From assembly GCA_032718475.1 (NCBI GenBank), contig JAUCBJ010001420.1:1-35894 (forward strand): DNA of 35,894 nt, in the 5' to 3' direction. Origin of the DNA: Nemertoderma westbladi (lineage: Eukaryota > Animalia > Xenacoelomorpha). Positions within the stretch are counted from its first letter, which is position 1. Each line of letters begins with the position of its first letter. The notes beneath the pieces were generated by a model, which was not told the origin of the DNA, made no database searches, and saw only the letters and a program-made list of their open reading frames with translations. Shown here piece after piece: positions 3,951-35,894 of the stretch. A program made the position numbers and the translations under genes.

Positions 3951-3979
3951 ACAGGATCCCTCATGAGCTTTAATATAAT

Positions 3980-5106: not shown

Positions 5107-5204
5107 ATTCATATATAACTTTGCAGTAATAGAGATTCCATGAAAAGATCCATATTGTTTTGTTTGCCCTTTTTGGTACCAACTAGTTTTCATTTATTGG
5201 AAAA

Positions 5205-13535: not shown

Positions 13536-14010
13536 GTACTATTATTTTACTGTATTATTATAGTTATACTGTAGATACAGTAAGAGTATTTGAGTAACAA
13601 CGTAAACCAATCTCGATGTAAAACAATCGTATGTTTTTCAAAATTGTTGATCAGTTGTTTAAAACAAGTGTGACGTTATGCTGTTATGAAAGGTTTCATT
13701 AAAAAAATTTATATTTAAAATTGTATGCCTACAGTATATTTCTCTAGTTCAATTTGGAATAAAAAATTTCATTGCGAAATCTAATAACTATTTACATACA
13801 TGTATAATGCGTACATGGAGTTCTTGGAAATGCTGCGACCAGAGTAAGTACGGAAACGGAAATAAGGTAGCATAATGTAATCAGGTCATACTGTATGTTT
13901 AGGTTAACCGATCACAGTTCTGAATTAAAAATGTAATGTTCTTAGTGGAATGATATACTTTTATTTGTATATTTACATTCATATTTATGTACTTTTATTT
14001 GTTTATTTAA

Positions 14011-14577
14011 AGGTCAGCAATAATATTAAAGGTATTAAAAGAATATTAGAGAATTTCAAAACATATTTTCGGCCGAAATTTCGGCCGAAATATTTTTTTA
14101 CATTTGTTCAGCTCTTTCATTTGCTGTCATTTTCGGCCGAAATTTCTACCGAAATTTAGGCCGAAATATTTTGTTACATTTATTCAGCTCTTTCATTTGA
14201 TGTCATTTTCGGCCGAAATCGCGATCGAAATTTCGGCCGAAAATGTCATCAAATGGAAGAGCTGAAAATGTAGTAAAATATTTCGGTCGAGATTTCGGCC
14301 GAAAATGACATCAAATTGAAGAGCTGAAAAAATGTAATAATATATTTCGGCCGAAAATGACATCAAATGAAAGAGCTGAAAAAATGTAATAAAATATTTC
14401 GGCCGAAAATGACATCAAATGAAAGTGCTGAAAAAATGTAACAAAATATTCTAAATGTTAAACTAAATATCATAATAAACTAGGGCCTATAAAACAAAAT
14501 ATTTTAAATTTCGGCCGAAAATATGTTTTGAAATTCTCTAATATTCTTTTTAAAACCTTTAATATTATTGCTGACCT
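14011..14577. mobile_element. Nested foldback MITE (Kolobok-like ends) with palindromic TTTCGGCCGAAA array
   Basis: About 70-bp TIRs AGGTCAGCAATAATATTAAAGG... / ...CCTTTAATATTATTGCTGACCT. TTAA is present on the left; the right flank is TTTG. More than 10 copies of TTTCGGCCGAAA lie inside. It sits within the hAT-like element. Confidence 0.85.
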
Positions 14578-15815
14578 TTTGGCGTTAACGGCGCCTCATA
14601 TTTACCTTGCCAAGTAATAGTGTTATGATAAAAAACTAATAAATTTTGAACTAAAAAATTAACTGTTTTCTGCACATATGCTTAAAACATATGTAAGTAT
14701 GGAAATCGAAAACGAAATAGTTGAAATAACCTGCCACGAATGCATATGACGACATAAATCAGTAAATAGATACAAGACAATACATATGTCAATTAAAATT
14801 TCCGTACTTACATATGTCAGTATGTTTTCAGCATATGTGCAGAAACAGGAAAATTTTTGGCGCGCAAGAGCGCGCACACACACGCCATGTGCGCGCAAGC
14901 GCGTACACATATGCCATGTGCGCGCAAGCGCGCACATGTGGCTTGCTCTGTGGGCGCACGGCGCACGTTTTTGGCCTTTTCTGCGCACGCGCACGCGCAC
15001 CCATTATTTTACCGCGCACAATGCGTTTTAATTTTTGCAAACATTTTCCAGGCTGGCCTACATGTATTGTCTGTTGTTCTCTTTATATGTGACTAAAATT
15101 AGTGAAGGTCGGCAGATTAGTGTGCAGCATTGTGCAGTATTGTGTATGATCGTGATTGATAACGAAGCATTTCCTAAAGAATGCGCCATATACGTGAATC
15201 TATAGCCATCCGTTGTATATAGTTTAAGTCATAACTCTGTTTATATATTTAAAGCGCCACGTCCTAAAGGAACTGTTAATATTTCCCGAAAGTGAATAAC
15301 ATTTGTCAGAGATTATATATATTACGATCAGTCGAATAATACAGTAGGCCTACACCGCAATACAATTAGGCTTCCGAATCCAGTCTCCCGGGTATATCCA
15401 GCGGGTGAATGATCGCGCATAGACTGGTTTCGGCTAATGTAGTGTATCAAATATTTGTCATAGGCTAAAGACGATCTATTATCTAGAAGACATCCCAATT
15501 TGGCAGGTTAAACTGCTAAAGGTCTGAAAGCGCGAACAATAACGGATATCGCTTCTGTATTGCAGTAGGCAATAAAGCTGAAGTACCGGACAACCGGTAC
15601 CTAGTAGGCCTGACTACCTAACCACCCGGACCGGTACCTACAGCAGTACAGGTACAGCAGTATTATTCGATTGTGAAATTGTATACCGGTAGGCTGTTTA
15701 AGAGATTAGGGACTGTACACCCCTTGTTTCTTTTGGAGCTTACTTATTTCTGTCAGTTTTATTTATTTGTAGGCCAGTATTGAGCAGAAGGCGTGTAAGC
15801 CTGCTCAGATTGTAC

Positions 15816-16397: not shown

Positions 16398-17363
16398 GTT
16401 TATGCGATTATTCACAACAACCAAGTTAATTCCTACAGTAATTGTGCTTGTTATATATACCGTTATAGTTAAACTAACCCCGGTACTACATCAGGGCTGC
16501 TTGGCGTAGGTAAAGACTGGTGATTTTGTGCCCCAGTCACTCCAGCAGATACCGTGGTTCTTTTAGCTGTTCAAGTATTTTTAACTACTGATTATTTGTT
16601 GTATAAGTACTTGTACCTAATTTAGGGTTTACTGTACAGTGCTTTCCGAAGGTGATTAGTGTGTAGGCAGTATATTTGTGTTGTAAAGTGGTTAATAGGC
16701 ACGTTGGTTCTGGTAGACCGCGGTAATTAACTTCTAGGTAGGAACACTCCGTGATACATAACGTAGTACTTATAGCGCCACGGCTATAAGTCGTCAGACG
16801 GTGGTATTTTTCTATCTGGACAACGCAGTATATTTACTACTACTTATTATTTTCAAATACCGTAGTAACCTGTCCGTTTTAATAACCAGATATTCTAACC
16901 CTTTGTTAGGCTGGTTAGTAGACTTCTTGTAAAATTACCCTAAAAATTCGTACTTGTAATTTTTGTGTTTATTTAGAGATTGTAATCTCACCCCGAATTG
17001 TACGTAATTTGTAGTATTAAGTAACTTAGGTAAATTAGAATTATTTGTTTTAGTGTCCAACAAGTAGCACTCCACTGAGAGCGCACAGCTTCTGTGTAGT
17101 GACTCCCCCCAGAAATAATAACATTTATTTCAAATATTGACAAAACCCATTAAACGGGTATATATATATTATAAATCAACTCAAAGATTTATAAATAGTA
17201 GGCCTGCCATACAACAATTAGGTCTAAATATCAGTTGGACTACTGCTTAAATAACGGTAATAAAGTAAGTTAAAGTAACCAAGTAACCCCTGAAATTTCA
17301 GAAATTCAGTTATTCTAAAATAACTGACATACCGGTATATACCATATATTTATTTTTACTATA

Positions 17364-19900
17364 TTGATTGCTCGGAGTTTAGTACAACAAATGTGGCTTG
17401 AAAACCACTCATGGGATGATCCACTTAAGGGAGAATTGTTAAAGAAGTGGATGAAATGGGAAGATTCTCTACCAGCCATCGAGAACTTTATAATTTCCCG
17501 TTCATATTTTGGTCATGTTCTCCCTACGTATTCCTATCAACTCCATGTGTTTGGAGACGCCAGCGATATGGGAATAGGTATAGTAGCCTACCTAAGGGTG
17601 GAAACTCCGGATGGAATCAAAGTCGCCTTGGTTACCTCTAAGGCACTGATAAACAACAAGTTGAAAGTTCCTCGAGCGGAGTTAAAGGCGGCTCTATACG
17701 CTACAGCCATCGGCCGGAATGTAACAGAACAGATCGACTATCCACTGGAGAAAACTGTCTATTGGACCGACGCTTTACTCGTGTTGGAGTATATAACCAA
17801 TGAAGTCTGTCAGTTCAGCGTCTTCGTTACCAACAGAGTAGCCATTATACTCAGTCGCACAACGATGGATCAATGGAGACATTGCCCCGGAACGATTAAT
17901 CCAACAGACATCACCTCCAGGGGAGCAACTCCACAAGAACTGGTAGACACACCAGACTGGTTAGGTGGACCCGACTTCCTCTACAAAGAAGAAGAAGAAT
18001 GGCCTCCTCATCTTACTACAGCAGAGATTACACAGGCCAAGGGAGCGGAGAAAGTCAAACCTAAAACTCGGGCGAGTAAATCGAAGTTATTCAAACCCAT
18101 GGTAGATCTGTCTGTACTACATATTTCCGGAGACGACGCTTTGGATCAGAAACCCACAGCCACAAATAAACTTGTTGTGGAAATCCGTGAGAAGGATTGG
18201 AAATCTGGAATACCAGACGTCTCGCAAGGACTCTCACCTCTTCTGCAGAGAGCGATACATCACTACAGTTCCTGGAATCGGCTCTGTAAGGCCGTTACAT
18301 ATTTAAAGAGATGTTTTCACCATCACTACTCCGGGATGAAGGCCAAAGGTGATACCGCTCCAATAACATCAGTGCAGGTCCATGTTATTAAAGATCTTCC
18401 CAAATATAAGATATCCGACAGGTTTCTGAAGGAGAAGATCAGTTATCAGGAGCATGAAGAAACCAACAAGCAGATGCTGAGACTCCTGCAATGCTATGAG
18501 GATTCCGATAAGTATTTCCTGTTGTTGAGAAATCCACAGATGCGCTTAAGGGATCATTTCTCTAGCACAATGATAGATGGGTTGATACGTGTTGGAGGAA
18601 GATTAACGAATGCTCCATTATCCTTTGACACTAAGTTTCCCATACTCATTAGAAATCTTGAAATACAAGTCAAGATGATTGTAGACGTTCACAGCAAACT
18701 TTATCATGCTGGTAGGGAACGAGTTCTTAGCGAAATTCGAACTCGCTATTATTTTTATAAACCCCGTAGAGCTCTGAACCAAGTTCTTAGGAACTGCATA
18801 CCCTGTAGGAAAGCATTCAGTAGGCCTTTAACACAGCGAGAGGCAGAATTACCTAGGGAACGAGTAAGCTTCTATGAACCACCCTTTACTAATACCGGTG
18901 TGGATTTATTTGGCCCTATTGAAGTATATCGTGCTAGGACTATAGTCAAGAGATGGTGTGTCATCTTTGTTTGTATGACTTGTAGAGCTATCCATCTCGA
19001 TATGGTGAACGATTTATCTACCAACAGCTTTCTATTAAGCTTACGACGACAGATCACTCGCTTTGGCACTAGTAACACGATGAGATCTGATAAGGAAACA
19101 TACTTCATTGGTGCCAACAATGAAATCAAAGCTTACGTCAAAGATTGGAACCAAAGACAGGTGGACGATCAGCTACGAGTAACAGCATCTAGCTGGACGT
19201 TCAACGCCGCCGACGCCCTTGGTGGGGAGGAAGTTGGGAGAGATTAATAAGAAGTGTGAAGACAGCATTTCACTTTATAGTGCCTTGCCGCGCGTATCTC
19301 ACCGACGAACTTTTGCGGACGTTAATGGAGGAAATCGCCGCCTATCTCAACGAGAGACCGCTTATGCCAGTCTCATCGAGTCCCGATTCCCTGGAAGCGC
19401 TAACACCCGCGCATTTCCTACTGAAGAAACCTGTAGCCATGCTCCCACAATCGGATATCACAGACGGAGACGAATACTGCCGGCAAACTTGGCAACTCAT
19501 GCAGTTGTTATCCCGTCGTTTCGCTGACCATTTCGAAAAACATTATCTGCCCACGCTACAACTTCGAACTAAGTGGTTTGCGCAGCAAGAAAACGTCAGC
19601 GCTGGAGACATGGTTCTCATTGTGGATGTAGATCTTCCACGTAAGCAGTGGCAGACAGGTCGTATCATCGAGACTCACATCTCGGATGATGGTTTGGTGT
19701 GATCGGTAGAACTCGTCGTCATGCGACGTAACTTGAAGAAACCGGGAATTGTCTTCGAGACACAGCAGCTCAATCGCCCAGTTGGTCGCTTATGTTTACT
19801 GGAAAGAGACAGAGAACTCTCCGGAAACTATGGGAGGCAAGATACTCTTCCTACGACCACCTCCCTAATCCAACAAACATCTAGGGACTCCCCAACTTAA
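17364..19900 (+). pseudogene. pol: Bel/Pao retrotransposon A pol, 5'-truncated (RNase H plus integrase), disabled
   Basis: WDDPL, LHVFGDAS, WRHCPGTINPTDITSRG, HHCC finger, TGVDLFGP and NERPL...LTPAHFL. A 1-nt deletion near 19217 breaks APWWGGSWERLIRSVK, there is a premature TGA at 19700, and the true stop is TAA 19898-19900. Confidence 0.95.
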
Positions 19901-20409
19901 CAACGGCTGGAGTGGGTGTATGACTGTATTTTATATTTGTTTTATTCTTTTATATTTATGTATATATTATTATGTAATTTTATTATAATCGTTTTCTTTA
20001 ATTTTATTTAATAGAACGTTATTTTAGCGATTATTTAGTAGATTAGTGCAATATATATTCGCGTTTATTACTTAATTACTTATACATTATATATTTAGTG
20101 CGACGGCGAGAAATAATTCTTTTTCTCCTTCCTTACTGTCCGTATTACATTACAAATACGTAACTACAGTAAGATGAAATGTCCGTACTTATTAAAGTAC
20201 AATAAAGCTCCTACTATATTTAAGTATTATTGGTAGGCAGAGTATTAGGAATGCAAAATTCAGATCCTCGTGTCTCGGCTAAACCAAGCTCTGGGTAGAC
20301 CTTGGAAACGACTTGCCTCTTCTCACTGACATTGCTTCGTCTTCATACCGTATATTAAATAATACATATAGTAGCGTGATGTCCTTTTAACAGTAGCGTA
20401 TAACGCAAA

Positions 20410-20740
20410 ATAAATCTGTTAAACCCTTTGACCATCTGTAATTCTAGTCGATTAAGATATCGCGGCACCCACCGATATACTTGAAAGACAAATTCTAGAA
20501 TCAGTGGTTAACGTCACCAGACAAGTTTTGGAATAAACTGGTGCCCATCCTAAATATTAATTATTAATATTTATAAAATCTGTCGAAATTTTAGATCCTT
20601 TAAAATTCTATAGTCGATTAAGATATCGTAGCACTTACCGATACTCTTAAAAAGACAAAATTCCTAGAATCAAGGATCCCAGTCCCCAGACACATTCTGG
20701 AATAAAATTGTGTCTATTTAACATTAAATAATAAAATTTA
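20410..20740. repeat. Diverged two-copy tandem repeat (166-bp period) in the post-pol spacer of copy A
   Basis: TAGTCGATTAAGATATCG at 20445 and 20611, each followed by similar ACCGATA...AAAGACAAA...CTAGAATCA...TGGAATAAA. Confidence 0.8.
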
Positions 20741-21240
20741 CGGGAATAAATTTAAATTCATATATTTCAATGAATTTAATAAATTGTCATTTTATACAAT
20801 TTATAACATTCCCAAAATTCCATTAATTAATAGATCATGGGAGCGGAGATTCACTCTATTAAGTGTATTTGTGTGCGCGAATCTCCAATATATAGTCAAT
20901 AGCCGATAAAATTCATAAAATCATATATAGAGAGGATATTGACAATTAAAGAATTACTATTAAATAGCATCCCAGATCTGTATGCATAAGAATTACCCTA
21001 ATTCTACCGCTAGCTTTCCATAATGTCACCATGGCAACAACCACGCTAGAATTAGAAGTGAGTTAAAAGAACAATAGAAGGCTTGCCCCATTGAATAGCA
21101 TAGGGAATAAATAGCGCACTGCTAGTATCCAAGGATACATAATAAATACAGTGACATTCTGGAAGGTACTGACTAACGGACAAATGGCCCGAATGTGTAC
21201 AGTTTGTGGCAGTTGTGTTGAATTTGTGCGTTCATAGGTG

Positions 21241-21495
21241 AATGTTACTGCTAAAGTGTGTTTACAGTAGCTAGTCGCAATTGTGAAAGTAGCCCTAACT
21301 CTCCAGAAAGAACCTGAAGTACATCTAAGCCTTTGGGACGGACAGTGGAGTGACTTGTGCCGGTTATCGTTGTCGTTGTGTAGCTACATCGTTGGCGAAA
21401 GCACAGCGACGACGGTACATCGGCGCTGAGGATCTTGCACTGTCCGGGGGCAAAAGAGGGGTAGGCAGCGACGCCCGCTAGCCTAATATATAAAC
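21241..21495 (+). ncRNA. Conserved structured cis-RNA element of Bel/Pao copy A (function unknown)
   Basis: About 85% identical to the reverse complement of 27483-27736. Nested stems such as 21339-21347/21438-21446 and 21365-21380/21402-21417 show compensatory changes between the copies. Confidence 0.75.
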
Positions 21496-21526
21496 TCATT
21501 ATAATATTGATAAACTCATAGCAGAT

Positions 21527-24126
21527 ATGACTGAGTTGATAGAAGATGATCTTGGTATCAGGGAGCGATATACTCTACCTTTACTCTACCGTTTGTCGAT
21601 AGCTTGATACGCGGCGACGCTGGTCCAACTACTACGGAGGATGATGGTCGTTATATCGAACCGCCAATGTCCCAGGAGCAACTTACGCGTGAATTGGATT
21701 ATAGAAAGTTCACCGCTCGCTATACGCATCGTAATGGTACGTATATGGACTTCTTAACTACTGGCCTTCCTACCGATTTACACGATACGGACGATGTAGA
21801 CACCGAAAGGGAAATGGTTTTATTTAAATACCATACCCAGCGGAGTCGGAACGATAAACCGAGAATGGAACACGAGAATTCTATTCGAAATCTACTCGAA
21901 AGATAGAACGTGGAAGAAGGCTTGTAAAGACAAATAGAGGAGAACCACTGGAGAAGAGACATGTGTTAATGTCCAGGGTCCATAATGTGAATAGTTTTCC
22001 CCGGGGCACGGGTGCTCGCGGGCGGTCTCCTTCGGGAGGATTTAATTTTCTCTTCCTTCATCGTTTTCCTGTAATTATTGTGATCAGTGTCACAATTAAA
22101 AGGCAAGAATGAATGATGACGTGACGGAAAACATGTCCATTGTGGTATCTTATGGATACTACCATATATCCTCCCTCCTCTTTACTTCCCTTATCCCTCT
22201 ATACATCGCTATTGAAAATACAACATACTTCGTCCCACCTTCTCTTCCCAATGTGCTCGGAGCTTTGGGAGACGATCGACCAATCATTGCCGTATCGTGG
22301 TATGGATCATACCGCCTCCTAATAAATCTCCCCACCCCTTACTGTTTATTTGGATGCTCATATTGGTGTCCGCACCTCCTGTCCATGTACCATTCTGTTG
22401 ATATTTATGATATCAACTTCCACCCTCTCGTTGTTGATTAGATAATCAACCACCAAGGATTTCCTTAAGTCCACGACAGTGATTCAAGGACTAAAAGGAT
22501 ACGCGGCTAGTCTGTGAACAACTGGTACCATTGTGTGTCATAAATCTGGTTGTCCACCTCCCTTAATGATTGGGGATATAAATCTTATGTAGAACAACTG
22601 AGACAAACATATCTTTGAACTGGTTGTTCCCTGGGCAGAAGGCCGAGGTTTCTTCCGCACTATGTATGCCAATACACCCAGCGGCATTACTAAAGTACAA
22701 CGAACCTCCATCGGACATCTTGCCTTTCAAGAATACGGATGGAATTTCAAGGTTGGAAATCCTATAAATTACCAACAAGTATATGGAGATCATTATTCTC
22801 GTTTATACTTTGATGGACCATTGACCGCACCTGGCGCCGTGTATAGCTTTATGAGTGTTCCACTTCGTCCCTCCTTAGCTATATACACGATCTTTGAAAA
22901 CGCAGCACTTGCCGGTTGGCTAGCCGATGTGTGCAGTCGTACCATACGCGCCCATCCCTTAATACTTGGAACCAAACTCGCCAAGTTAGATGAACACAAT
23001 AAATTCATCCGCTTCGAATGTTTCAGGCGCTTTCTGACTCCGTTCCGTAACGTTGATAGTCAGTTCAAGGACCGCGCTCTGACCAAACTCAGCCTAAGAG
23101 ACTCAGCTGCGGAGAAGCTAAACAGCGCGGGATTTGCCCTCTTTCAGGACGTTTGTATACAGAACTTACATTCATCTGTTATACAAAGACCCCGAATACC
23201 CACGGGTTATTCTGTCGTGGAAGTTCAGACAGTGGGTCCGCTTGCGGAGACAGCTGCACCTACCTCAGCTATGCAATTGGAAGACGAACCAATCTGCTTA
23301 GAGTCTGAAGCGATCCAGCCTACAGCGCCCCGGAGCAGCGATAACAATTACGTCTTGGAGTGGTATCAAGGTCCACAATGTCTCACCGCATACGATTATC
23401 GACACACCAACTATGTTTCTCGAAAACGTTGTCGATTATGCGCATCGAGAGACCATTTCACCCCTATGGACTCAGACGTACCCTGCTCCTATTTCCACGA
23501 ACAACCGATGATGGAGATCTATTGTGCGTATTGCAGACTTAATAACTCGCATATTTTTGCAGCCTGCCCCCAATTTATGACCCAATGCCACCACTGTCAA
23601 CTTAAAGGACATGCCGAGTTATAATTGCCCCTTTAACCGCGATTTAGAAAGCGTAGATGAGATGATTACCCTGCGCTACATCCGAGCTTGGGAAGCGAAT
23701 GCGGATTTACATTGTGAGTCCCGCCATCGCTACTACCCTGGACGCTCTTATGAGGGAGTTTACGCGTTCCATCCTTATTTATTCGCGTCTGTGGAACAAA
23801 AAACACGCACACCGAGTTACGAACTAATGAAGCGTGTTGGTGAGTGTATTTCCACCAAATTTGTTCGAAAATATCTTAGGAACGTCAATCCTAATGATAT
23901 TACTTCATACCATTTGATCAATTACATCCGTCAAGACCCTGAGTATGGCGATTTATTTATCAACTCGCACCCTGAGTTACAGGAAGTATCTCGACGGCCC
24001 TACGAATATCGAGCCCGAGAACGCGAGCTAGAAAGAACCATTAAACCAAGGAAGTTTCTCACCACTCACAGTCCGCCTACCGCCATTGTCCAGACGACCC
24101 GTCAAGGACCCGTAGGAGTCCGTAGG
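21527..24126 (+). pseudogene. Decayed extra ORF(s) of copy A encoding a triple CCHC zinc-knuckle protein
   Basis: ATG 21527 joins ORF 21604 if an 11-nt tandem duplication (about 21580) is removed. ORFs 22662-23624 and 23611-24165 join if one extra T (about 23620) is removed, which restores CHHCQLKGHAEYNC. The knuckles lie at 23430-23628. Continuity across 21970-22660 is uncertain. Confidence 0.65.
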
Positions 24127-24482
24127 ACGACTACGCTTCCCATGAGTTGGTTGGCAGAGAAGTAGATCTGGTATGACCTCATCTTTACTTCGCCAGCAGT
24201 GCCCACAGAATCTTAATCTGCGTTCATCTGGTTGATACAGGTGGTATTGTACCATAAAGCTCGGCGTTTGTCATGTGTTGTCTCCAGCTGATGTTTAGGG
24301 CTGTCCTTAGTAGTCTTGTGTAGCAACGAAATAATTAAAATTAAATTAAGATTAATTCGTTGTTCAAGTGATTTAGTCAGTGTCCAGGTCTCATCCCCGT
24401 ATAAAAATACACTTTCCACCGTGGCTCGAAAGAACTTAGTCTTCAGTTGCCTGGAGAGATCTGATTTCCAGATGGTATCCAT
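24127..24482 (-). mobile_element. Internal fragment of the same RTE family as 5205-6064
   Basis: MDTIWKSDLSRQLKTKFFRATVESVFLYGDETWTLTKSLEQRI...RRLRFCGHCWRSKDEVIPDLLLCQPTHGKRSR, colinear with about 5573-5917. It lacks both the 5' part and the (TAG)n tail. Confidence 0.9.
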
Positions 24483-27482
24483 ATATAGATCATATATATA
24501 CAATTTTGAGTTGAACGAATTATGTTTTTGACAGACCAATATCAAGCAAGTAAAATTATTTGGAAACAGAGAAACAACATGTTCCTATCTGTTCAACCGT
24601 AAGTAGTCATCGTTTTATTTAAGCAGGGACACAAAGCGCAACCCTGTTTAAATACTGTAAGTAAAATTATCACATTGGTTACATTTTTGCATATGTGTTT
24701 CGCCGGGATTTGGCTCATCAGCTACACTAACCCGTAGTTATATATGTTAAGTGCAATCCCAAATCCCCCGAAAGGGCAGAATTAACCGAGATCAAAACTG
24801 AGGGAAAGCTATCGCTATTGCGAGTAAATGTTTTAATTCAATGGTGGAGACCTCAACACCTTTTTACAGCAGCGCTCACAATAAGTAAGTTCAATAGATA
24901 TTTGTCGTTCGATTTTGGCAGGCAGTAAAGGCTAACATATAAAGTACTGTAAAACACCAGCAACCAAAACAATAAACCAAACCTATATCAGAATGTACAG
25001 CAATTATGGCTGAAAATTCGTAATTCATGCTAGACCAGTAGGCTCTTCTAACTAATCCCAAAACGAGCAAATACTAATTTTTTATCTTTCAAAATATGTA
25101 TAAACAAATAAATAAATTTTATACTTACAACAGTTTGGTTGTCAATCTATACGGAATTTAGGATACTAGGGCTGAGAAAGAAATAATTAAATGGCCTAAC
25201 TATTTTACCATCCCAAATGTTCCCTCAGCGCTATAATAACCACCAATTTATCCGTAGGGCCTAAGAATGATCACAAACTATCTAAAATAATTATTAGAAA
25301 ATTAGTAAGTTAGAATTCCTAACGTGTTATGGTAGACCTAGCTACCGGTCTGCCGGTACATGAATTAGAAATCAATATAGGGGCCTCTGAAAACTATAAT
25401 CTAACCCCTTCACCAATTGGCCTACAGCCTTAGCACTTAGGGGCAATTGATTGACATTTACTAATCCAATTTTAGCGAGCCCAAACTTATGCCTAATGGT
25501 TCGATCAACTTCCCTGATAGTCCAATTTTGCTTCCGTACCGCCACTGATGTCCCACATCCCATTGCCGGCCTCACCGCACCGCAGCTAATCTTAGCCGGA
25601 CATCGCGAATGTTTTCGATAATTGACTCATGTCAGAATGCGATCTGATCCGTTAATCAGGAACAACAATGTTATTGAACGTGTTCTAATCGACTAAGACA
25701 TTATATTGAATATCGTATCACAGTATCACAGTTTTATATCAAACACATCCAGACATCAGACATCTGAATGCAAAACAACAAGGCTGATAAAATTTAAATA
25801 CACGTCCAAATGTAAAAGATTAAACCATATAACGTACCGGTACTGCGGTACTTAATGCAGTAACAGAGTAATGAATGAATATATATAACTTCAATTCTAT
25901 ATTGAAACAAGCATAAAAAGAATTCAAAGGCTGTCATTGGCTAATCATGTTTAAAAAGCCTTAATTTGAAATACCTCCAGTAGGGCTTAGTTATACTGTA
26001 CTGTATAATAATAATAATCTGGAAATAATTATAGATACTGGACAATTAACCGACTGGTGATTTATCATATAATCAGGTAGTATTTCACATAATGAATCGT
26101 ACAGTATTTCTACTGCAGTAAGTAAAGGAACTGAAACAAACTTAACTTTAAAGAGAATCCATAAGATTTTCGTTAATTAATATAGTAGAATATAGGTATA
26201 GAATATAGGTTTTATACTTTAAACGTACAGTAGAAGTTATCGGAACAATATAACGATTATAAAATAAAATTTTTATACTCTTACCAAATACAATACACCG
26301 CTCCGATCAGACGTTTAACGCTCTGATCCCATCACCGGACATACCGAATAAATCTAAAAACTACTATATAAAATTATGTAGAATATACTAGATTAATCTG
26401 AATTTATCAATATTTCAAAAGGACATACAATTGTATAACATACTACCTATAACACAAAGATTTATCTGAATTATTTCAATTATTACATAAAATATCTAGC
26501 ATAATAATAGGACTGACTTACACATTTTCTTAAAATATTGTAAGAGTCCGGTTCACTTTTAGTACCTTGTCAGGTAGTAACTACCTTTTACTAAGGCATA
26601 AATAATATAAATCGAATGAGTTAGTGAAATATTTGTTAACATCGTAAATAAATTGAGGCTAATATATGATTAGGTAAGCATATAAGACGGTAAGCATATA
26701 AGACTTATTAAAAAAAATACCCTAATCCTGGTATTGCAATCGGCAGTGACAACGTCGGTCACATCCAGCCCAATCGCAATTACTTCGCATCGAACGCTCG
26801 TATGGGATTTGTGTATTCTGGAATTCTTTGAGTTTCTTACTGTTCCAACTCCGCTGGTGGCCGGTATCAATGGGAGTTCGGGTAGAACCATTCATCCCCC
26901 CCTCCTTTTCCACTCATCAACCATCAGATGGCGCAATATCTTTTCTGTATCGCCCAGATATTTCGATCGCATCCACAGTCAAATCGATGGGGTAGGTCAA
27001 CAGGTTCTTATGCGGTACCATCCTGTAACTAGTAACTTATAGAAAGATTATTGATGGATGGATGAATGGCAGGTACAGTATCACAAACTTTCAGCTAAGC
27101 CTGGGTTTACCTCCATCAGTTCAGCGTTTGTCAACCAATTGATATTAAATTATCTTATTCTAGCGCTGACCCCAAATTTTGACATTTGCGAAACAAAATC
27201 ATTCGCTTTTTTATATTACTATCTAAGAAATTTAGAGAGAAATTATGTCAATAAAGTGTTAATCAATAAAGAGATATCTTGATTTTGGGATCTGTCTCCC
27301 CTTCTACAAAACATGTTTTAAACATACCCCTAAGACAGCTACAATACCTGTGCCAATATATCTGTGAGACCCTTTTTGATAAAAATAATTTAATGTTACA
27401 GCCTCCAGATGTAGTACTCCAATCTTTTTGACACAAATTTAAAGTTAAATAAATCAACTAGTTAAAATTATTTAACTTTTTT

Positions 27483-27736
27483 GTAAATATATCAGGGAGC
27501 GTGTGAGCTGCCTCCCCCTCAATGCCCCCCGGACAGCGCAAGATCCTCAGCGCTGTTGTACTGTCGCCGCTGTGCCTCTCGCCAACGTCGTAGCTACACA
27601 ACGACAACAATAACCAGCGCGAGTCACTCCACTGTCCGTCCCAAGGGCTTAGAATTACTTCAGGTTCTTGCTACAGAGGTAGGGTAACTTTCACAACTGC
27701 GACTCGCTACTGTAAACACACTTTAGTAGTAACATT
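27483..27736 (-). ncRNA. Conserved structured cis-RNA element of Bel/Pao copy B (function unknown)
   Basis: Homologue of 21241-21495, in the same orientation relative to pol, starting about 195 nt after the pol stop codon. Confidence 0.75.
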
Positions 27737-27931
27737 TTTTAGCAATATCATTTTCGAAATTCATATGATTTTCAAATTCAAATGGGATGTAATAAATAAT
27801 AAAAGTGTTGTCGGTATTCCAGTACACAATAATCCGCTCCTATGTGTAATCGGACGTAATCCGAAATACACATAACAGACACTGGAATATCGAGCACTAG
27901 AACACCACAGTAAAATAAAGTACACTTTATT

Positions 27932-30900
27932 TTACTTTGTCTTCTTGGAGGTTTTTACATTTCCTGTCTCATATAATTTGTGGGAAGTATAATCACTGGG
28001 TTTTTTAAAGATTTTGTAGTCTCCAGTCTGACAACGTGACTCTTCTAATAAAACGAGATGTTGCACTGGTCTAGTTACTACATGTTTGTCTAGTGTTCTA
28101 ACTGTCACAGTTCGAACTGTTCCGTCTGATCCTGGATGAACCGCTATTACAACACCTGTTAACCAGTGACGCCGTTTTAGGTTCGCCTCGGCTAAGAGAA
28201 CAGAATCTCCTTTACAAAGATTCCTTGTTGTTTGATACCATTTACTTCTGGCTGAAATAGTGGGCAAATAGTGTTGTCGCCATATTTCCCAGAAGTTATC
28301 TGCTAACAATTGTACGATTTTCCACGCTTTCCTGGAGTACAGATCGCTGTCATCTGGGACAGAGATTGGTACAAGTGGTGCGGGAGATTGCATTAATATA
28401 TGGTTTGGTGTCAGGGCAATAACGTTGTCTGACCTGTCTGGCACCAGTGCAATCGGTCGAGAATTCAAAGTATACTCGATCTCTGTGAAAAGAGTCACTA
28501 GTTCATCGTCTGTGAGTACTTTGTTCGGTGGGATGGTCTTATGGAACGCCAATTTTATGGATCGTATAAGACGCTCCCAGCTACCGCCTCTCCAGGGGCT
28601 GTCAGCCGTGTTAAAGTTCCATGTGATACGACTGGGTATTAATTCGGCAGCAATTTTATCATGGTCAATAGTATTAAGAGATTTATTAATCTCGTTGTCC
28701 CCACCGACAAAGTTCGTACCTTGGTCACTATAGAAAGCCTGAACCAACCCGCGTCTGGCTATGAACCGACGCAAAGCAAGTAATAAGGCATTTGTGGACA
28801 TGTCTGTGACGCGTTCAATGTGTACCGCACGGGATGCCATACAAATGAATATGACACCCCAACGTTTTACCATCGACCGTGCACGCTTTGTGAGGATTGG
28901 ACCAAAACAATCCAGTCCCGTATGGGTAAATGGTGATTGGTGTGACTGCACTCTAGCTAAGGGTAGTTCACTCATTTGTTGCTGGGTAATGCGTGCGTTC
29001 AACTTTTTACAAACTATACAGTTTGATAGAACTGTATTTAATGCCTTTGTTGGTTTTATTAAGATAAAACGTTGTCTTAACAAAGAGATGCAATGTGAAC
29101 GGCCAGCATGTTTCAGCTTCAAGTGAGCATCCCATATCATGGCGCATTGTAATTCTAAGTATGCTGGGATTATAATTGGATATATGAAGTCTCGTGCTAG
29201 GTCTGTAGCTTGTAATCTAGACCTGTGACAAAGGAGTCCTTTGTGTATGGTCGGGCTCAACCTGACTAATGGGGAAGAACTAACCGCTTTCTTAATCATA
29301 ATGGCGTTGTACTCACGGGTGTAACTTCGCAGCTGAAAATGAAGGATGATCTTCAATTCCGCCTGGTCTATTTCCTCGATAGATAGTCTCCTGGGAAATC
29401 CTCTAATAACCCTTTGTCTCCAATCAGATAGTGAGTATTCCTTTGATTTACCCAAGAATTTACTAAGTCTACTGATCCAAGCGGCTTTCCTACATAGCTT
29501 TAGCCAAGATGAACTGGAATTTACTAACCTGTCAAAGAAATTCCTTAAATTACTGTTAAGTGGTTGTGTTACCATAACATTAGGCGGTGGCTGTGATGCC
29601 ACATTTTTTACAAGATCTTGCTTACTATTGGTCAAGGGTGATTCTAGAAATATCGCTTTTACTTCATCGAATTTTTCATCACCAGGAACTGGATGCATGT
29701 CAATATATTCATCGTCGTCTGATATATCTAGGGCTAGGTCAACTTCGGACTCAATCTCTAAATTAATATCTGAATCTGGCGGATTTGGCGGTGGTAACGA
29801 CGCAGGAACTATATCACTTGTATGTGTCACTCGCGATCTTAGATTATATAATGTGGTACGGGACGTAATCTCATTTGTGTCTAACATCTGTTCACTCATG
29901 GCATTTCTCGGCCGCTCCATATAATTATTTGACATTACCTGATCAGTCAATGATGTTGGTATATGGGATAAACCTGTGGCCTTCGCCTTTGACTTCTTTA
30001 CTTTCTCGATCTTAATCTCCGCTTCCGGTGGAAGTTTATGTAAGTGGCAGTGAAAGATTGGAGGCCAATGCTCTGTTGACTTCCTTAAGAATTTGGGTCC
30101 ATGCAGCCAGAAATCTTGATTATCTGGTTGACAAAACTCCTTCGGCATCATTCCTCGCGAGGCAATGTCTGCGGGGTTGCGATCACCCGGACAGTGACGC
30201 CAGTCTTCTTTGATAGTAAAATCTAAAATCTCGGCTTTCCGATTTGCAACAAATGTCTTAAATTGTACATCATCAATATTTAAGTACATTAATACTAAAG
30301 TGGCATCAGTCCAATAGGTTATATGTAAACGTATCCCAATCTCGCGTTTTATGAGTTTCGCAATGGTTACGCCTATCAAGGCGGCTTGTAGCTCACCCCT
30401 CGGTATGTTCATATATTTAATTGGCATAGTTTTAGCTCTAGACGTAATGAGCGATGTCTCAAACTCACCTGACTCAGTCTCTCTCCTGAGGTATAAGGCA
30501 ACTCCTAACCCATTCGAGCTTGCATCACTAAAGCAGTGGAGTTCCAACTCAGTAGGAAAAGTTGTCTGATCTGGAAAATATAGTCTAGGAAATTCTAATT
30601 CCTGCAGAGCTCCCAACTCTGCCTCCCAGAGTCTCCACTTACCTGCATGTTCTGAGGATATTGGCTCATCCCAACCAATTCCAGTTTGCCAAATGCTACG
30701 AAGATATATCCTTGCCTGTAATACAACGGGGCTAATGAGGCACAGTGGGTCGAATAGTCGACTCATTGTGGATAGGCATTTCTGCTTAGTCAATGTCTCA
30801 GCTGGCGGCAGTACTTGGACACGCACCTGGAAGTTATCATTATTTGGATTCCATCCTAGGCCGAGGACCTTCGATGTGGGGATATCCTCAAACTCTAGCT

Positions 30901-33900
30901 CGATGTCGCCGCTCCTCCGATCTTCTGAGGGAAACGAGTTGATTAGTTTGGCTGAGTTAGAAGTAAACTTTGTTAACCGGAATCCTCCAGTCTTCAGACA
31001 CTCCTGTAAGCCATGGGAAATTTTAATTGCTTGCTCCTCGGAATCAAAACAGTCTAACCCATCATCCATGTAGAAGTTATCACCTACTGCCTCAATTACT
31101 TCAGCAGGGAAATGTTCACTTTGTCTTTTTGCAGTTTCTTTCAAAACAAAGAGGGATCCATTTGGGCTATCTCGTGCTCCAAAAATTCTAACCAACATTT
31201 GATATGTGATAGGTTCACCAGACAAGTCGTCATTTGGATACCAAAGGAACCTTAGGCTGTCCTTATCTTCCTTTAAGGCATATACTTGGTGGTACATAGC
31301 TTCTATGTCGCATGCAAAAGCGAATCTACGTCTCCTAAAACGAAGCAATATCCCGATCAGGTAATTATTTTGATTTGGGCCATCCATAAGCTCAGAGTTG
31401 AGCGACATTCCTAAATATTTCCTACGACAATCGTTAACAACTCTAACGCGTCCAGGTTTATCAGGGTGAATGATATAATGATGAGGAAGATAGTATGTCT
31501 GATCAGTAGTTTTGTCTGGGTAATCCATTTTCTCAGCATATCCCTTTTCTAAATAATTGTTTATTTGAAATCGGTATTGCATGTGTATCTTTTCGTCTCG
31601 CAACAATCGTTTACGGATAGATTGAAGGCAACGTAAAGCTAGTGGTCGATTATTAATGAGTTTTGGCTTGTCGTGTCGCCATAGCATTCCTACCTCAAAA
31701 TGCCCATTTGGTAGGCGATTAATAGTATTTCTCATTATATCAAGGGAACGTTTGTCATTCGCTGACATCGCTATATCGTAGCTACCAGGTTCCATAGCAT
31801 ATTCTTCTAGCCATTTAAGGGTCCGATAATTCATTTCATGATCTTGGTCCATGAGATCACGGATGTACTCAATATCTTCAACTTCAGCTGAGGGATTACA
31901 CATAACCTTATTGTAGTCTGGTCTACTTAGTACTTCAGTGAAATTCCTAGCATCACTTAAGAATGTAAAAGCAGTTTCACCACGTATATTACTGTCGTCT
32001 TGATCAGAATCCACAGAGTGATCTGACTGGTTGTCATTTAGATCTGTAGGGTTAATCTCACCTTCCTCTAGACTCATACCTAAACCAAACTCCTTATTAT
32101 CTTCTATTGATCTGTTTACATAATGTCCAGGTTTAGTTCGTTTAAAAACTACTATAAAGTCCTTTGGTGACCTGGTATACCAACCTAAAATGGTTCGAGT
32201 AGCATAGGGCTTACCTGGTTGAGGTGGATGTGGCCTAGTATCCCAGGCATGATGAGCATCAAAGACATCTAATCCGATCAACATTGCAATATTTCTATAG
32301 TTAACATTACATTCCGGGATACCTAAACATCCGAAGTATTCTCGTTCTTGTTTGGTCAAAGCAGGCACTCCCCCCAAAAGTCCAGAAAATTCTTTCAAAG
32401 CAATGAAGGATACATTCTTTATTGGTAGTAGACTTTGTTCTGGTAGAGTGTGATGATTTCGTGGTAATAAGGAATCTAATGAGAGGTTTATCGATTTACC
32501 ATTTAGTTCTCCTTGTCCATGCATAGATCCTAAATCGATCCTACGGCTCTTCGCACTCAAAGTGTCCGTAACAGCGCTGGCTACTTCTAAATCTACATAG
32601 CTATGGGTAGAGGCAGGATCTAGTATGACATAAATTCTCTTCGTTCCATGTTCTCCAATAATCTTAATGGGAATTACGCTAAATGAAGCAGATTGTACTG
32701 CTGTAAGGTATGTATTTGCACATATGATGTCATCAATATTAGTGGCATCAGTATCTCCTACCTGACACTCATCCTTTTCATCATCCTCATCTGAAGAACC
32801 GGATTGATCAGCATTGACTGAAGCAAATGTAACCTTATTTGGGATTGGGTTAGGATTTCTAGCAATCCTACTTGGATGGTCCATGATATATTGTTTTGTA
32901 GGAGTGTGCTGACTAGTATGTAGCAACCGATGATGCAACCTACCACAATCTTGGCATCCTTTCTTTATGGTGTCTGGACATTCTCGGCGTTTATGACCAG
33001 TGGAAAGACACTTCCAGCATGCATCTAAAGATCGTATTGCCAGTCTTCTCTTATCGACGTCGAGTTTTGTAAAGAAATCGCAACAATGCAATTTATGATC
33101 CATATGTTTTTGAGATTGCTGATAACAATATTGGCAACCGCGAAAGTTGGAGGGCAGCTCCTGACGCTCCAGGGTCACTCCTATGGGGGCTGAAACTTTA
33201 CTCTTCTCCAATTGGTATCGCGATTTTGATATATTCGAGTCAATCCCAGTTGGTCCTAAAGTGTTGTAGGTTAGACACGTCCCCTCTGTTGTCATCAAGG
33301 ATTTAGGTTTTGCTATTGAGCGCCTTTCAACCTGTAAATATTCTTCAGAGTAATTTGAACGGGAATCTGCGAGTGCTTCTCTAGCGATTAACTCATGTAA
33401 GTGTCGTAACTTTAAAGTCTCTCCACGTTCTTCTATTTTGCTCTCTAATTTCCGCCACTTTTGACGGTGACGGTAACTTAACCTTCTAATTATATCTTTC
33501 AAGATGTCTGGTCTATCTCCATAGTTTTCACAACCAATATCCGGTAATATTGATATTGCATTCTTTATTTCATCCGCTAGTTTTAATAATTCATGAGATG
33601 TAGAAATAGGACCACCTTTTCCAAGTTCATCTACAATGGATTGAGCCACCCTGGTGTTACTTCCATATACAGAGGTTAATCGCTCATAAGTAAGCTGAAA
33701 TGCATTTGGGTTTCCTGTAAAAGTCTCAGCTAACCCTCTAGGTTCCTTCTGTAGTAGTTGTAACAGGTAATTGAATTTCTCATTTGAACTGAAATCCTTT
33801 TCTTTTATTTGGGAGTCAACATAATTTATAAAGGTGCGCCAATGTTTTGCATTACCATTAAAACGTGGAGGTTGTTGGGTTGGCAGACTCTGGCGAGCAG

Positions 33901-35869
33901 CAAAGCGAGCAATTTCGGTAAGGACAGCCGTAGTCTCTGTCTGTTTTTCCTTCTCCTTCACCAAACTAGATTTATTTCCTCTATGAAATTCTCCACAGAA
34001 ACTGCTAGAAGAGCTCTCAACAACCTCGGAATATAAATTTTGATGTGGGGTTGAACGACGCTGTGCATACGTCGAATTGAAGTGAATCTTCTTTGACAAA
34101 CTTGGCTCTCTAACTCGATTTTGTGATATTTCCTCCATTTCTGAATCAGTTTTTAAGTTTCTCCAGACTGGTGTGTCCATCCAATCAACCTTTTCTTGAA
34201 CTTCCTTCAGTTGTTGTAGTAAAGGTGCATTGCATTCTTGCATAGCAGCTTTCATTTGCTCAATTGAAACCTTCGGTTCTATGGGAGTCTCAAAATCAAA
34301 TAGATCGAACTTATCGGCTCTGTGTGAATGTTCCCAATTCTGTGAGTAGGGCTCATCACCACCAGTTCTATACCTCTCCCGAGATCTATTACCATAATGA
34401 TACCAAGGATTCTGGGGAAGTAGATATCTTTCCCTACAAACGAAACATGGGCAATCTCTTTCATGAGGCTGTGGTCTGTGCTCGCCCTCACATTGCCAAC
34501 GTTCGTCTACAAATTTGTCTGGGGTATACAGCGGTTGGAAGGGTTTCTCGTATGGCTTTGTCTCAGGCTTCCTCACTATGTTCTGGTTTAGTCGAGGAAT
34601 GGGTCGTTCTTGGTGAACTTCTTGTGCTATCCTGCCCTTATGCAATGACGATACATATGCTTCTGTTAGAGGGAACCTTCTTTGGGCGGACTCACATATG
34701 ATTGGAGCTTCCTCCACTTGGTCTATAATACTACTGTGCTCTTCTTCATACTGCTGCCTATCATTTACTAACTCAAGCCGTGCATCCTGCAACTGAGCTC
34801 GCTTATGTTCCATTTCAATCTCATGGATACGCCTTCGTTGCTTTAATTCTAATTCTCTTCGCTTTTCGTCTACTTGTGCGCGTCTCTGTGCATGTTGATG
34901 CTCTAAATTTGCCGCTGCTTCACGCTGTTGCCTCTGTAATTCATCACGCAAATGCTCTGCTTCTTGGGCTGCAGCTTGTGCTTCACGCCTAAATTTAGCT
35001 GCTGCTTCCTCATGCTGCTCTTGCTGCTTTAAATCTGCTTCTTGTGCTGCTAATTTATGTATCTCCTCTTCAGCGAGTTCAACTTCCTGCCTACGCGCTT
35101 CCTCTACTTCGAGCTTTCTCTCTTCAACTGCAATTAGTCTATCTCGTTCTGTGAACGCTCGCAGGGCCTTTTGTGATTCTGTTATCGAACTCCGACTACG
35201 TACTACACTCGTACTTCGTCGCGACCTTGTTGTGCTTTGGCTGGCAACAGATAAAACTTCCGCTCCACTGTTTAACCCACTCACTGTCTCTTGGTTTGCA
35301 GTTAATGGCAATGGTAATCCAATGATAACTACTCCTCTCTTACTTAAGTACCGGGTTAATTTAGTAACTCGATGCTGAGTCTCAACCACAATACGTTCCT
35401 CTGATTCTCTAAACTCGACTTCATTGACTGTTAGAGATTCACAAACTGCTTCGCTCCATCGTGTATTACGAATTTGGGAAAAGTGTTCAATTACTCTTAT
35501 ATAACTCACTCTTGCCTTTTTCAATTTCTCGAATAAGAAAGTCAGGGTTTTATTCTCTTGATATTTTTCTGCTCTATCCACAAGAGCTTGTAGTTCAGCT
35601 ACTGGATGGATCATCTGGGTGTTAAACTTACCTTGTAACTCCAAAAGTTGTTGTCTGTCTAATGTAGCACCCTCTTGTAATAATAATGTAATTACCTTGT
35701 TTGTGCACTTTGTAATTTGTGCCATATACCCACCAGCACTCCTACTTATCGGTGGCCCTCTTTGTGAATCTAAACTACTTACTCTCACCACCTCCTCTAT
35801 TTCGTCATCGTTTGAGTCAGAACCTACTAGAGTTATGTCCTGTATAGTCGATGTCCTATGTATACTCAT
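27932..35869 (-). CDS. gag-pol: Bel/Pao LTR retrotransposon B gag-pol polyprotein, intact single ORF (2645 aa)
   Basis: Coiled-coil N-terminus, capsid-like PRFNGNAKHWRTF region, and the Bel-type triple knuckle (CQYC..H..C, CWKCLSTGHKRREC, CQDCGRLHHRLLH). Then protease ILDPAST, RT YYLPHH/DIEAMYHQV/FYMDD, RNase H LHCFSDAS, and integrase HHCC, GLDCFGP, SDQGTNF, GSWERLI. The 5' LTR lies outside the window. Confidence 0.97.
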   Translation of the reverse strand: MSIHRTSTIQDITLVGSDSNDDEIEEVVRVSSLDSQRGPPISRSAGGYMAQITKCTNKVITLLLQEGATLDRQQLLELQGKFNTQMIHPVAELQALVDRAEKYQENKTLTFLFEKLKKARVSYIRVIEHFSQIRNTRWSEAVCESLTVNEVEFRESEERIVVETQHRVTKLTRYLSKRGVVIIGLPLPLTANQETVSGLNSGAEVLSVASQSTTRSRRSTSVVRSRSSITESQKALRAFTERDRLIAVEERKLEVEEARRQEVELAEEEIHKLAAQEADLKQQEQHEEAAAKFRREAQAAAQEAEHLRDELQRQQREAAANLEHQHAQRRAQVDEKRRELELKQRRRIHEIEMEHKRAQLQDARLELVNDRQQYEEEHSSIIDQVEEAPIICESAQRRFPLTEAYVSSLHKGRIAQEVHQERPIPRLNQNIVRKPETKPYEKPFQPLYTPDKFVDERWQCEGEHRPQPHERDCPCFVCRERYLLPQNPWYHYGNRSRERYRTGGDEPYSQNWEHSHRADKFDLFDFETPIEPKVSIEQMKAAMQECNAPLLQQLKEVQEKVDWMDTPVWRNLKTDSEMEEISQNRVREPSLSKKIHFNSTYAQRRSTPHQNLYSEVVESSSSSFCGEFHRGNKSSLVKEKEKQTETTAVLTEIARFAARQSLPTQQPPRFNGNAKHWRTFINYVDSQIKEKDFSSNEKFNYLLQLLQKEPRGLAETFTGNPNAFQLTYERLTSVYGSNTRVAQSIVDELGKGGPISTSHELLKLADEIKNAISILPDIGCENYGDRPDILKDIIRRLSYRHRQKWRKLESKIEERGETLKLRHLHELIAREALADSRSNYSEEYLQVERRSIAKPKSLMTTEGTCLTYNTLGPTGIDSNISKSRYQLEKSKVSAPIGVTLERQELPSNFRGCQYCYQQSQKHMDHKLHCCDFFTKLDVDKRRLAIRSLDACWKCLSTGHKRRECPDTIKKGCQDCGRLHHRLLHTSQHTPTKQYIMDHPSRIARNPNPIPNKVTFASVNADQSGSSDEDDEKDECQVGDTDATNIDDIICANTYLTAVQSASFSVIPIKIIGEHGTKRIYVILDPASTHSYVDLEVASAVTDTLSAKSRRIDLGSMHGQGELNGKSINLSLDSLLPRNHHTLPEQSLLPIKNVSFIALKEFSGLLGGVPALTKQEREYFGCLGIPECNVNYRNIAMLIGLDVFDAHHAWDTRPHPPQPGKPYATRTILGWYTRSPKDFIVVFKRTKPGHYVNRSIEDNKEFGLGMSLEEGEINPTDLNDNQSDHSVDSDQDDSNIRGETAFTFLSDARNFTEVLSRPDYNKVMCNPSAEVEDIEYIRDLMDQDHEMNYRTLKWLEEYAMEPGSYDIAMSANDKRSLDIMRNTINRLPNGHFEVGMLWRHDKPKLINNRPLALRCLQSIRKRLLRDEKIHMQYRFQINNYLEKGYAEKMDYPDKTTDQTYYLPHHYIIHPDKPGRVRVVNDCRRKYLGMSLNSELMDGPNQNNYLIGILLRFRRRRFAFACDIEAMYHQVYALKEDKDSLRFLWYPNDDLSGEPITYQMLVRIFGARDSPNGSLFVLKETAKRQSEHFPAEVIEAVGDNFYMDDGLDCFDSEEQAIKISHGLQECLKTGGFRLTKFTSNSAKLINSFPSEDRRSGDIELEFEDIPTSKVLGLGWNPNNDNFQVRVQVLPPAETLTKQKCLSTMSRLFDPLCLISPVVLQARIYLRSIWQTGIGWDEPISSEHAGKWRLWEAELGALQELEFPRLYFPDQTTFPTELELHCFSDASSNGLGVALYLRRETESGEFETSLITSRAKTMPIKYMNIPRGELQAALIGVTIAKLIKREIGIRLHITYWTDATLVLMYLNIDDVQFKTFVANRKAEILDFTIKEDWRHCPGDRNPADIASRGMMPKEFCQPDNQDFWLHGPKFLRKSTEHWPPIFHCHLHKLPPEAEIKIEKVKKSKAKATGLSHIPTSLTDQVMSNNYMERPRNAMSEQMLDTNEITSRTTLYNLRSRVTHTSDIVPASLPPPNPPDSDINLEIESEVDLALDISDDDEYIDMHPVPGDEKFDEVKAIFLESPLTNSKQDLVKNVASQPPPNVMVTQPLNSNLRNFFDRLVNSSSSWLKLCRKAAWISRLSKFLGKSKEYSLSDWRQRVIRGFPRRLSIEEIDQAELKIILHFQLRSYTREYNAIMIKKAVSSSPLVRLSPTIHKGLLCHRSRLQATDLARDFIYPIIIPAYLELQCAMIWDAHLKLKHAGRSHCISLLRQRFILIKPTKALNTVLSNCIVCKKLNARITQQQMSELPLARVQSHQSPFTHTGLDCFGPILTKRARSMVKRWGVIFICMASRAVHIERVTDMSTNALLLALRRFIARRGLVQAFYSDQGTNFVGGDNEINKSLNTIDHDKIAAELIPSRITWNFNTADSPWRGGSWERLIRSIKLAFHKTIPPNKVLTDDELVTLFTEIEYTLNSRPIALVPDRSDNVIALTPNHILMQSPAPLVPISVPDDSDLYSRKAWKIVQLLADNFWEIWRQHYLPTISARSKWYQTTRNLCKGDSVLLAEANLKRRHWLTGVVIAVHPGSDGTVRTVTVRTLDKHVVTRPVQHLVLLEESRCQTGDYKIFKKPSDYTSHKLYETGNVKTSKKTK

Positions 35870-35894
35870 GGTCGGTAAATTTTAATTCTGTATT

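Follow-up and report, generated by a model that had tools for sequence, protein, structure and literature searches.

A structured RNA domain common to two deeply diverged Bel/Pao retrotransposon families, with pairing preserved on the pol-sense strand

Cis-acting RNAs that serve export or packaging have been described for several retroelements. The RTE of IAP elements, located in the pol/RTE/ppt region, acts through RBM15 to recruit Nxf1 (PMC2674570), and the musD MTE is a structured export element that needs long-range contacts (PMC5767303). VL30 RNA is packaged by MLV via the psi signal (PMC4859993), and the dimer initiation site is a conserved palindrome in a hairpin loop (PMC5874298). Cer1 of C. 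elegans is an LTR retrotransposon that needs its own export protein, CERV (PMC10309623). For Bel/Pao elements, export, packaging and translation of the RNA have been little studied, and the literature searched describes no structured RNA for them; this is a weak negative, the slash spelling being unsearchable and most subscription journals missing from the collection.

Here we describe an RNA domain of about 255 nt found twice in a window of 35,894 nt, the whole stretch of Nemertoderma westbladi DNA that was analysed (contig JAUCBJ010001420.1), each time behind the pol of a Bel/Pao element. Both neighbours are Bel/Pao elements: by Pfam, element B contains PF05380 (Pao peptidase/RNase H region), an H2C2 integrase, DUF5641 and, in gag, DUF1759, and element A the first three. 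The relevant features of the window are the following.

17361..19900, + strand: element A, a 5'-truncated Bel/Pao pol (RNase H, integrase, DUF5641), interrupted near 19217 by a frameshift and at 19700 by an in-frame stop
19909..19921, + strand: purine tract and TGTAT just behind A's pol stop, a putative polypurine tract with the 3' LTR start at 19917
20572..20620, + strand: putative LTR promoter with a TATA-like box and the TAGTCGATTA motif, belonging to the second copy of a 165-nt duplication (first motif at 20445)
21241..21495, + strand: structured RNA block, copy A (self-BLASTN, folding)
21527..21906, + strand: orphan ORF directly behind block A, with a frameshift within its first 30 codons here; five of six listed variants synonymous
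22602..24165, + strand: two overlapping orphan frames of 340 and 194 aa, with CCHC-like knuckles; nine of 12 listed variants synonymous
24790..26297, - strand: putative 3' LTR of B, its end not fixed, with TAGTCGATTA at 25695; contig depth 388-465 against 177-238 inside the element
26293..26304, - strand: purine tract and TGTAT, a putative polypurine tract with B's 3' LTR start at 26297
27483..27736, - strand: structured RNA block, copy B; the pol stop is 196 nt upstream of it and the putative LTR start 1190 nt downstream
27932..35881, - strand: element B, an open Bel/Pao gag-pol frame of 2649 codons (Pfam, ORF)

Self-BLASTN of the window aligns 21241-21491 with 27736-27487 on opposite strands at 85.3% identity over 252 columns (E 5e-75). 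Column by column, the copies differ at 40 of 248 positions, slightly other figures than the roughly 39 of 257 given in a preliminary description of this DNA, whose point is nonetheless real. As stated there, the flanks do not align on either side, and identity does not run on into them as in a recent recombination tract. At the DNA level the pol genes have a single 101-nt patch in common (68%, self-BLASTN). The pol proteins are 35% identical over 335 aa and 45% in a C-terminal piece, with tblastn values of 41% for the RNase H part and 35-40% for the integrase; the integrases had been called about half identical, which slightly overstated a pol identity of 35-45%. The distance between A and B is about that separating B from elements of fish and corals (37-38% identity). 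In a quick protein tree of 45 rows (the two window proteins and 43 of 120 matches, namely the first 12 and then every third, less those removed by a length filter), A and B group as sisters with an SH-aLRT of 99 on very long branches of 2.4 and 2.1 changes per site, on which, by the tree program's own caution, placements are unsure. Ten invariant runs are left in the block, among them unpaired AGUCGCA and UCUAAGCC. A covariance model made from the two sequences matches, in the window, both copies and the mirror of the hairpin and nothing else.

Good folding is limited to the pol-sense strand, with z-scores of -4.5 and -3.1 for the two copies against -1.1 and -1.0 on the other strand. The fold consists of the following parts, all on the + strand in copy A.

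21248..21270: 5' hairpin of 8 bp with a GUGUG loop and a CA bulge; a single G-U/A-U difference separates the copies, and no listed family variant falls here
21273..21279: unpaired invariant AGUCGCA, leading candidate for long-range pairing (6 bp, with 21350-21355), without covariation
21324..21338: near-invariant UCUAAGCC-Y-UUGGGA, 5' of the long hairpin (column comparison)
21339..21446: long hairpin domain (42 bp) in which 21351-21353 faces 21431-21433 in a tandem G-A internal loop; it holds every compensatory change
21464..21475: small 3' hairpin with a 3-bp core, weakly supported

All 53 pairs of the model are valid in both copies, 45 of them unvarying, six with one-sided and two with both-sided changes, and nine of the 53 are G-U pairs in each copy. 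Differences are rarer in paired than in unpaired columns (10/106 vs 30/142, P=0.015). The ten changes at paired sites break no pair and include two compensatory pairs; placed at random on paired sites they would break 3.2 pairs on average (P(0)=0.003), a test biased towards the model because the model was built from these same two sequences. Covariation is judged here from two full sequences and a table of family variants, the shuffle control of the covariation program being uninformative with two rows (124/500). The preservation of pairing and its dependence on the strand, both read at first from the letters alone, are borne out by these figures, and the 5' hairpin, the CGGACAGUG helix, the 6-bp helix and the tandem UGA/GAU loop are all present in the fold. 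Three details of that reading need adjustment: the long stem exists but has 17 bp and not 16; the basal GCCUU/GGGGC helix is a weak point, with a pair probability of just 0.03-0.04 in copy A; and the long-range AGUCGC/GUGACU pairing (6 bp), the longest of the additional helices that both copies can form and no listed variant disrupts, competes with local pairs and, being invariant, is possible but without covariation.

Public contigs extend the comparison to a family. Block A is covered by 2258 contigs in run X1, 695 in X3, 34 in X4 and 30 in X5, and 40 of 48 variant rows are listed. Nine of the 11 listed variants at paired sites of the long hairpin keep pairing on their own (null mean 6.0, P=0.017; second null, P 0.014). 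The tenth, 21416, changes together with 21366 in one contig, turning A-U into G-C, a linkage read from matching depth figures (558.3 in X4, 11.3 in X5). The eleventh, 21405, breaks its pair with no partner change listed, in a contig that has gaps nearby. Listed variant places are not significantly rarer in stems (11/106) than outside them (26/141, P=0.10). Some further pairings are rejected on these variants: a local UCGC/GUGA hairpin, as 21285 varies in 24%; a long-range AAGA/UCUU pairing, broken by variant 21436 (66% in X1); and a CCCU/AGGG pairing, broken by variants 21459/21460. The earlier proposal of a cis-acting domain under selection is supported by pair-preserving and compensatory changes between the copies and among the variants, by the strand asymmetry and by the mostly retained flanks.

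The fraction of contigs that continue into unlike sequence is 0 in X1 (2258 contigs), 0.02 in X3 (695), 0.29 in X4 (34) and 0.13 in X5 (30), and the last two values indicate that some more diverged contexts exist. Run X5, labelled as another organism and possibly RNA, shares haplotypes and depth shape with organism A, and its contigs were therefore taken as evidence neither of expression nor of a second species; runs X7 and X8 yielded no aligned contigs. The flanks are the same in most family contigs and are as deep as the block itself, and no box B pattern is present; the block is therefore not an independent SINE or MITE inserted twice, an origin that had been raised as an objection. Summed X1 contig depth is 0.57-1.45 million across 20900-21900, flanks included, 0.1-0.29 million across 22650-24160 and 177-179 in B's flanks; summed depth is not copy number, and after division by 31 for overlapping words the gap between A and B is still about hundredfold. 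One B-type contig (X1, depth 179) skips 27659-27770 (112 nt) and with it the first 78 nt of the block, including the 5' hairpin, at a joint whose short side has just 25 nt and where 4 letters fit either side. The 5' part of the block may be dispensable, or that copy may have decayed.

The two copies stand at non-equivalent places in their elements, a point missed when both were first described as downstream of pol: this is correct for each, but A lies past its putative polypurine tract and LTR start and B before them. A purine tract followed by TGTA, a pattern formulated after both sites had been seen, occurs exactly twice in the window, at 19909 (A) and 26304 (on B's strand). For TAGTCGATTA, 0.15 occurrences are expected and three are observed: two lie at +528 and +694 relative to A's TG and one at +602 relative to B's, and TATAAAA lies 33-43 nt upstream of two of the three sites. 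These sites, 20445 and 20611 (+) and 25695 (-), fall in both putative LTRs, and the doubling in A is due to the 165-nt duplication (72% identity). Contig depth about doubles past B's TG, as expected of an LTR. Homologous LTRs thus probably start at 19917 and 26297, which would put block B in the 3' UTR and block A 1324 nt inside or beyond the LTR, some 630 nt behind the promoter motif. The 5' end of B lies outside the window, and none of the 15 CA..TGG sites after A offers a convincing LTR end or primer binding site, so that the link between the abundant unit and pol A rests on adjacency in one copy, and the unit may either be one long LTR or share the LTR as a non-autonomous partner. GGAGYGG is found 11 times in the window against 3.1 expected, nine of these being in sense orientation within A, B or the unit that follows A; this polypurine-tract word is thus enriched throughout.

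No Rfam covariance model matches 21200-21540 at E<=10, in agreement with the first reading, which had recognised no known RNA family, and across 20800-28200 three chance matches lie elsewhere, none on the block. The block is a real RNA motif under structural selection whose sequence is described neither in Rfam nor in the literature searched; it adds to the cis-acting RNAs of retroelements, with a putative function. The pol-to-PPT location of block B matches that of the IAP RTE as placed in PMC2674570, whereas block A, beyond the PPT, is unlike the location of RTE, MTE and CTE. The block further differs from the IAP RTE, the musD MTE and the MPMV constitutive transport element in having no Rfam match, in belonging to Bel/Pao and not to a betaretrovirus-like host, and in that its export role is putative. 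The leader-like position in the A family recalls retroviral packaging and dimerisation signals, and the abundant unit, which may depend on another element's proteins, recalls VL30 on MLV (PMC4859993), while copy B in the 3' UTR is unlike packaging signals. As with Cer1, an invertebrate LTR retrotransposon may here possess a dedicated export route (PMC10309623), and the extra proteins predicted for the A-type unit have CCHC-like knuckles that could bind RNA; unlike Cer1, for which the export account in PMC10309623 concerns a protein and describes no RNA element, the extra proteins here are without a homologue found.

Export and packaging signals can act independently of position. The reading that we prefer, with a probability of about 0.5, is that the block is a position-independent, protein-recruiting signal on the genomic RNA for nuclear export or packaging, the two taken jointly. 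Given LTR starts at 19917 and 26297, each genomic RNA would contain a single block, which in the A family would be close to the 5' end and in B within the 3' UTR. The structure of block B is unbroken though no ORF adjoins it, and position-independent action would be the simplest account of a domain that is intact both at a 3' UTR site without an ORF and at a leader-like site with one. Invariant unpaired segments, among which UCUAAGCC-Y-UUGGGA is a possible protein-binding face, would form the binding surface together with the tandem G-A loop, with the G-U-rich stem as scaffold, and the module would have moved by recombination during reverse transcription. Against an export or packaging signal stands the comparison with known elements of either kind, to which the block appears to bear no sequence likeness; the real gene 32 nt downstream in A, moreover, favours a role in translation.

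That gene belongs to a set of coding frames. In 21550-21906, 22602-23624 and 23581-24165, 14 of the 18 listed variants are at synonymous third positions (P 1.4e-4; variants from 40 of 540 rows listed), and these orphan frames are coding and under purifying selection. The CCHC-like knuckles are in the 340-aa frame (22602-23621), for which no homologue was found, including among 1.84 billion representatives; single-sequence structure predictions gave pLDDT values of 31 and 43, too low for use. By tblastx the orphan genes have no counterpart in B. The Cys-rich frame that ends at 21237 was rejected as a coding sequence, with one of its six variants synonymous. The run of orphan ORFs at 21527-24165 (+) lies in the very abundant unit, downstream of the putative Bel/Pao LTR promoter. 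Between the ORFs, a GC-rich patch at 22005-22050 (+) has two small hairpins (z -2.5), and family depth there drops at least 30-fold. The last orphan frame is interrupted by a LINE-like fragment at 24127-24482 (-), which we take to be RTE-type, with a weak DUF6451 match and a partner copy at 5573-5917 (+).

The main rival reading is that the block is an IRES or another translational control of ORF 21527, acting from a long LTR-initiated leader and being in B a leftover or a relic of a lost ORF; from the sequence features we rate this as possible but unlikely. It draws on the AUG at 21527, which begins 32 nt behind block A (about 30 had been noted) and opens a coding ORF with five of six listed variants synonymous, on the eight ATGs between the putative promoter motif and that ORF, on the invariant unpaired GGG at 21335-21337, and on the IRESs reported for some insect LTR elements, the errantiviruses (PMC3383448). 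Third ORFs of LTR elements are typically spliced according to PMC5408684, though, and the suggestion of an IRES, which fits copy A, does not fit copy B: here no ATG follows for 162 nt and ATG-started ORFs in the next 500 nt have just 15-34 codons, yet no pair is broken.

In type IV (HCV-like) IRESs, as outlined in PMC13034579, a IIId hairpin with a GGG loop is followed by IIIe, IIIf and two pseudoknots, 3' of the apical domain. With these, including the megrivirus E 3' IRES, the block shares a length of about 250 nt, one long apical stem-loop and an unpaired GGG and, in copy A alone, an AUG close behind. The order and loops of the type IV core are not found, however: the GGG of the block lies 5' of the long hairpin and not in a later hairpin loop, and IIIe/IIIf hairpins, closing pseudoknots, shared helices and an Rfam match are all missing relative to the features in PMC13034579, so that membership of this class was rejected.

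Passive capture, in which the block functions only in the abundant A-type unit and B received it, unused, through a recent recombination tract from a rare subfamily, is improbable. An 85% DNA identity is indeed very high for pol branches of 2.4 and 2.1 changes per site, the position in the two elements differs, and a B-type contig has lost the first 78 nt. Yet on both sides the tract would have ended where the folded domain ends, without any flank, and none of B's ten paired-site changes breaks a pair. Nor are B's own stem alleles among the common family variants listed (40 of 48 rows), and B is therefore not a copy of a major A subfamily.

The long hairpin might also serve as a precursor of small RNAs or as a double-stranded decoy that dampens host silencing of the element, which seems very improbable. 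The 42-bp stem would suit such a role, and so would a 5' arm that is invariant at 21369-21380 facing a 3' arm with eight listed variants; this asymmetry, however, is explained by wobble pairing in a stem with a G/U-rich 5' arm, the 5' end of that arm does vary (21366 and 21368), about 100 nt outside the hairpin are conserved too, and neither copy has a run of four U.

A self-cleaving ribozyme of an undescribed class, processing the element transcripts, is highly improbable despite several invariant unpaired segments round a helical scaffold, a possible pseudoknot and the frequency of ribozymes in retrotransposons (PMC6765202), given that no Rfam ribozyme matches at E<=10, that the hammerhead-like CUGAGGA and GAAA are both variable (15-24% of family depth) with a stem II that stays open, and that cleavage within the genomic RNA of an LTR element would presumably cut its template.

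Candidates among known classes were also tried. A hammerhead has invariant CUGANGA and GAAA, joined by stem II, with a cleavage triplet before stem I. CUGAGGA and GAAA are present in the block, but 15-24% of family depth shows variation at 21431 and 21285, and a stem II, as read from the sequence, would open with U-U and does not close; the known families to which the early ribozyme suggestion would point are not found. Twister, pistol, hatchet and HDV-like ribozymes have no Rfam match, although a 110-nt insertion could hide one, and a fit by eye of the twister consensus failed. The dicistrovirus IGR IRES is marked by UAUUU and CAGCC loops and three pseudoknots; CAGCC is absent from both copies, and UAUUU is absent from A and found only at the AT-rich edge of B. 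A dimer initiation site was rejected as well: the 8-nt palindrome GUAGCUAC near the hairpin tip is present in both window copies, yet it is broken in about 40% of family depth, its positions 21381 and 21382 varying in 40% and 38% of X1 depth. The ENE triple-helix element has a U-rich internal loop, and no run of 4 U occurs in either copy. SECIS elements and kink-turns have tandem G-A pairs with the right flanking helices; here the UGA/GAU loop is present, the helix above it has about 30 bp, and 21431 changes from G to A in 15-24%.

More speculatively, a movable RNA module could make this deep Bel/Pao clade a two-part system, a tentative idea that we think less probable than not. Autonomous gag-pol elements would hold the module in the 3' UTR or leader, and a far commoner LTR-driven unit with orphan zinc-knuckle genes would use the same export or packaging route. 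If so, the block would be the first structured cis-acting RNA family for Bel/Pao in the literature searched, and possibly a new IRES or ribozyme fold. A compact domain that is 85% identical where pol is 35-45% identical, at differing places in two families, is a ready object for probing and reporters, and it also draws attention to a genomic unit of very high abundance whose orphan genes are under purifying selection.

No homologue of the block was found outside the runs of the host organism, in collections that are mostly prokaryotic or viral. An exact 15-nt motif hit 15 loci in viral contigs, none extending past 24 nt; a gapped 24-base pattern had 0 hits in metagenome contigs; and blastn against phages returned just chance matches of 26-27 nt. 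Alignment of the integrase to pattern-matched loci gave 0 of 41 in viral contigs and one of 110 in metagenomes, where 33 residues match at the end of a contig of 1 kb.

Other structured features occur in the window. Between B's pol stop and the block, at 27815-27935 (-), there is a second strong hairpin (z -8.5 in a 120-nt window, 20 shuffles), for which no counterpart was found in A. Elements with long terminal inverted repeats, MITE- or foldback-like, lie at 3977-5109 and 14009-14579; they have 236-nt arms at 93% and nested arms of 32-77 nt with internal tandem units.
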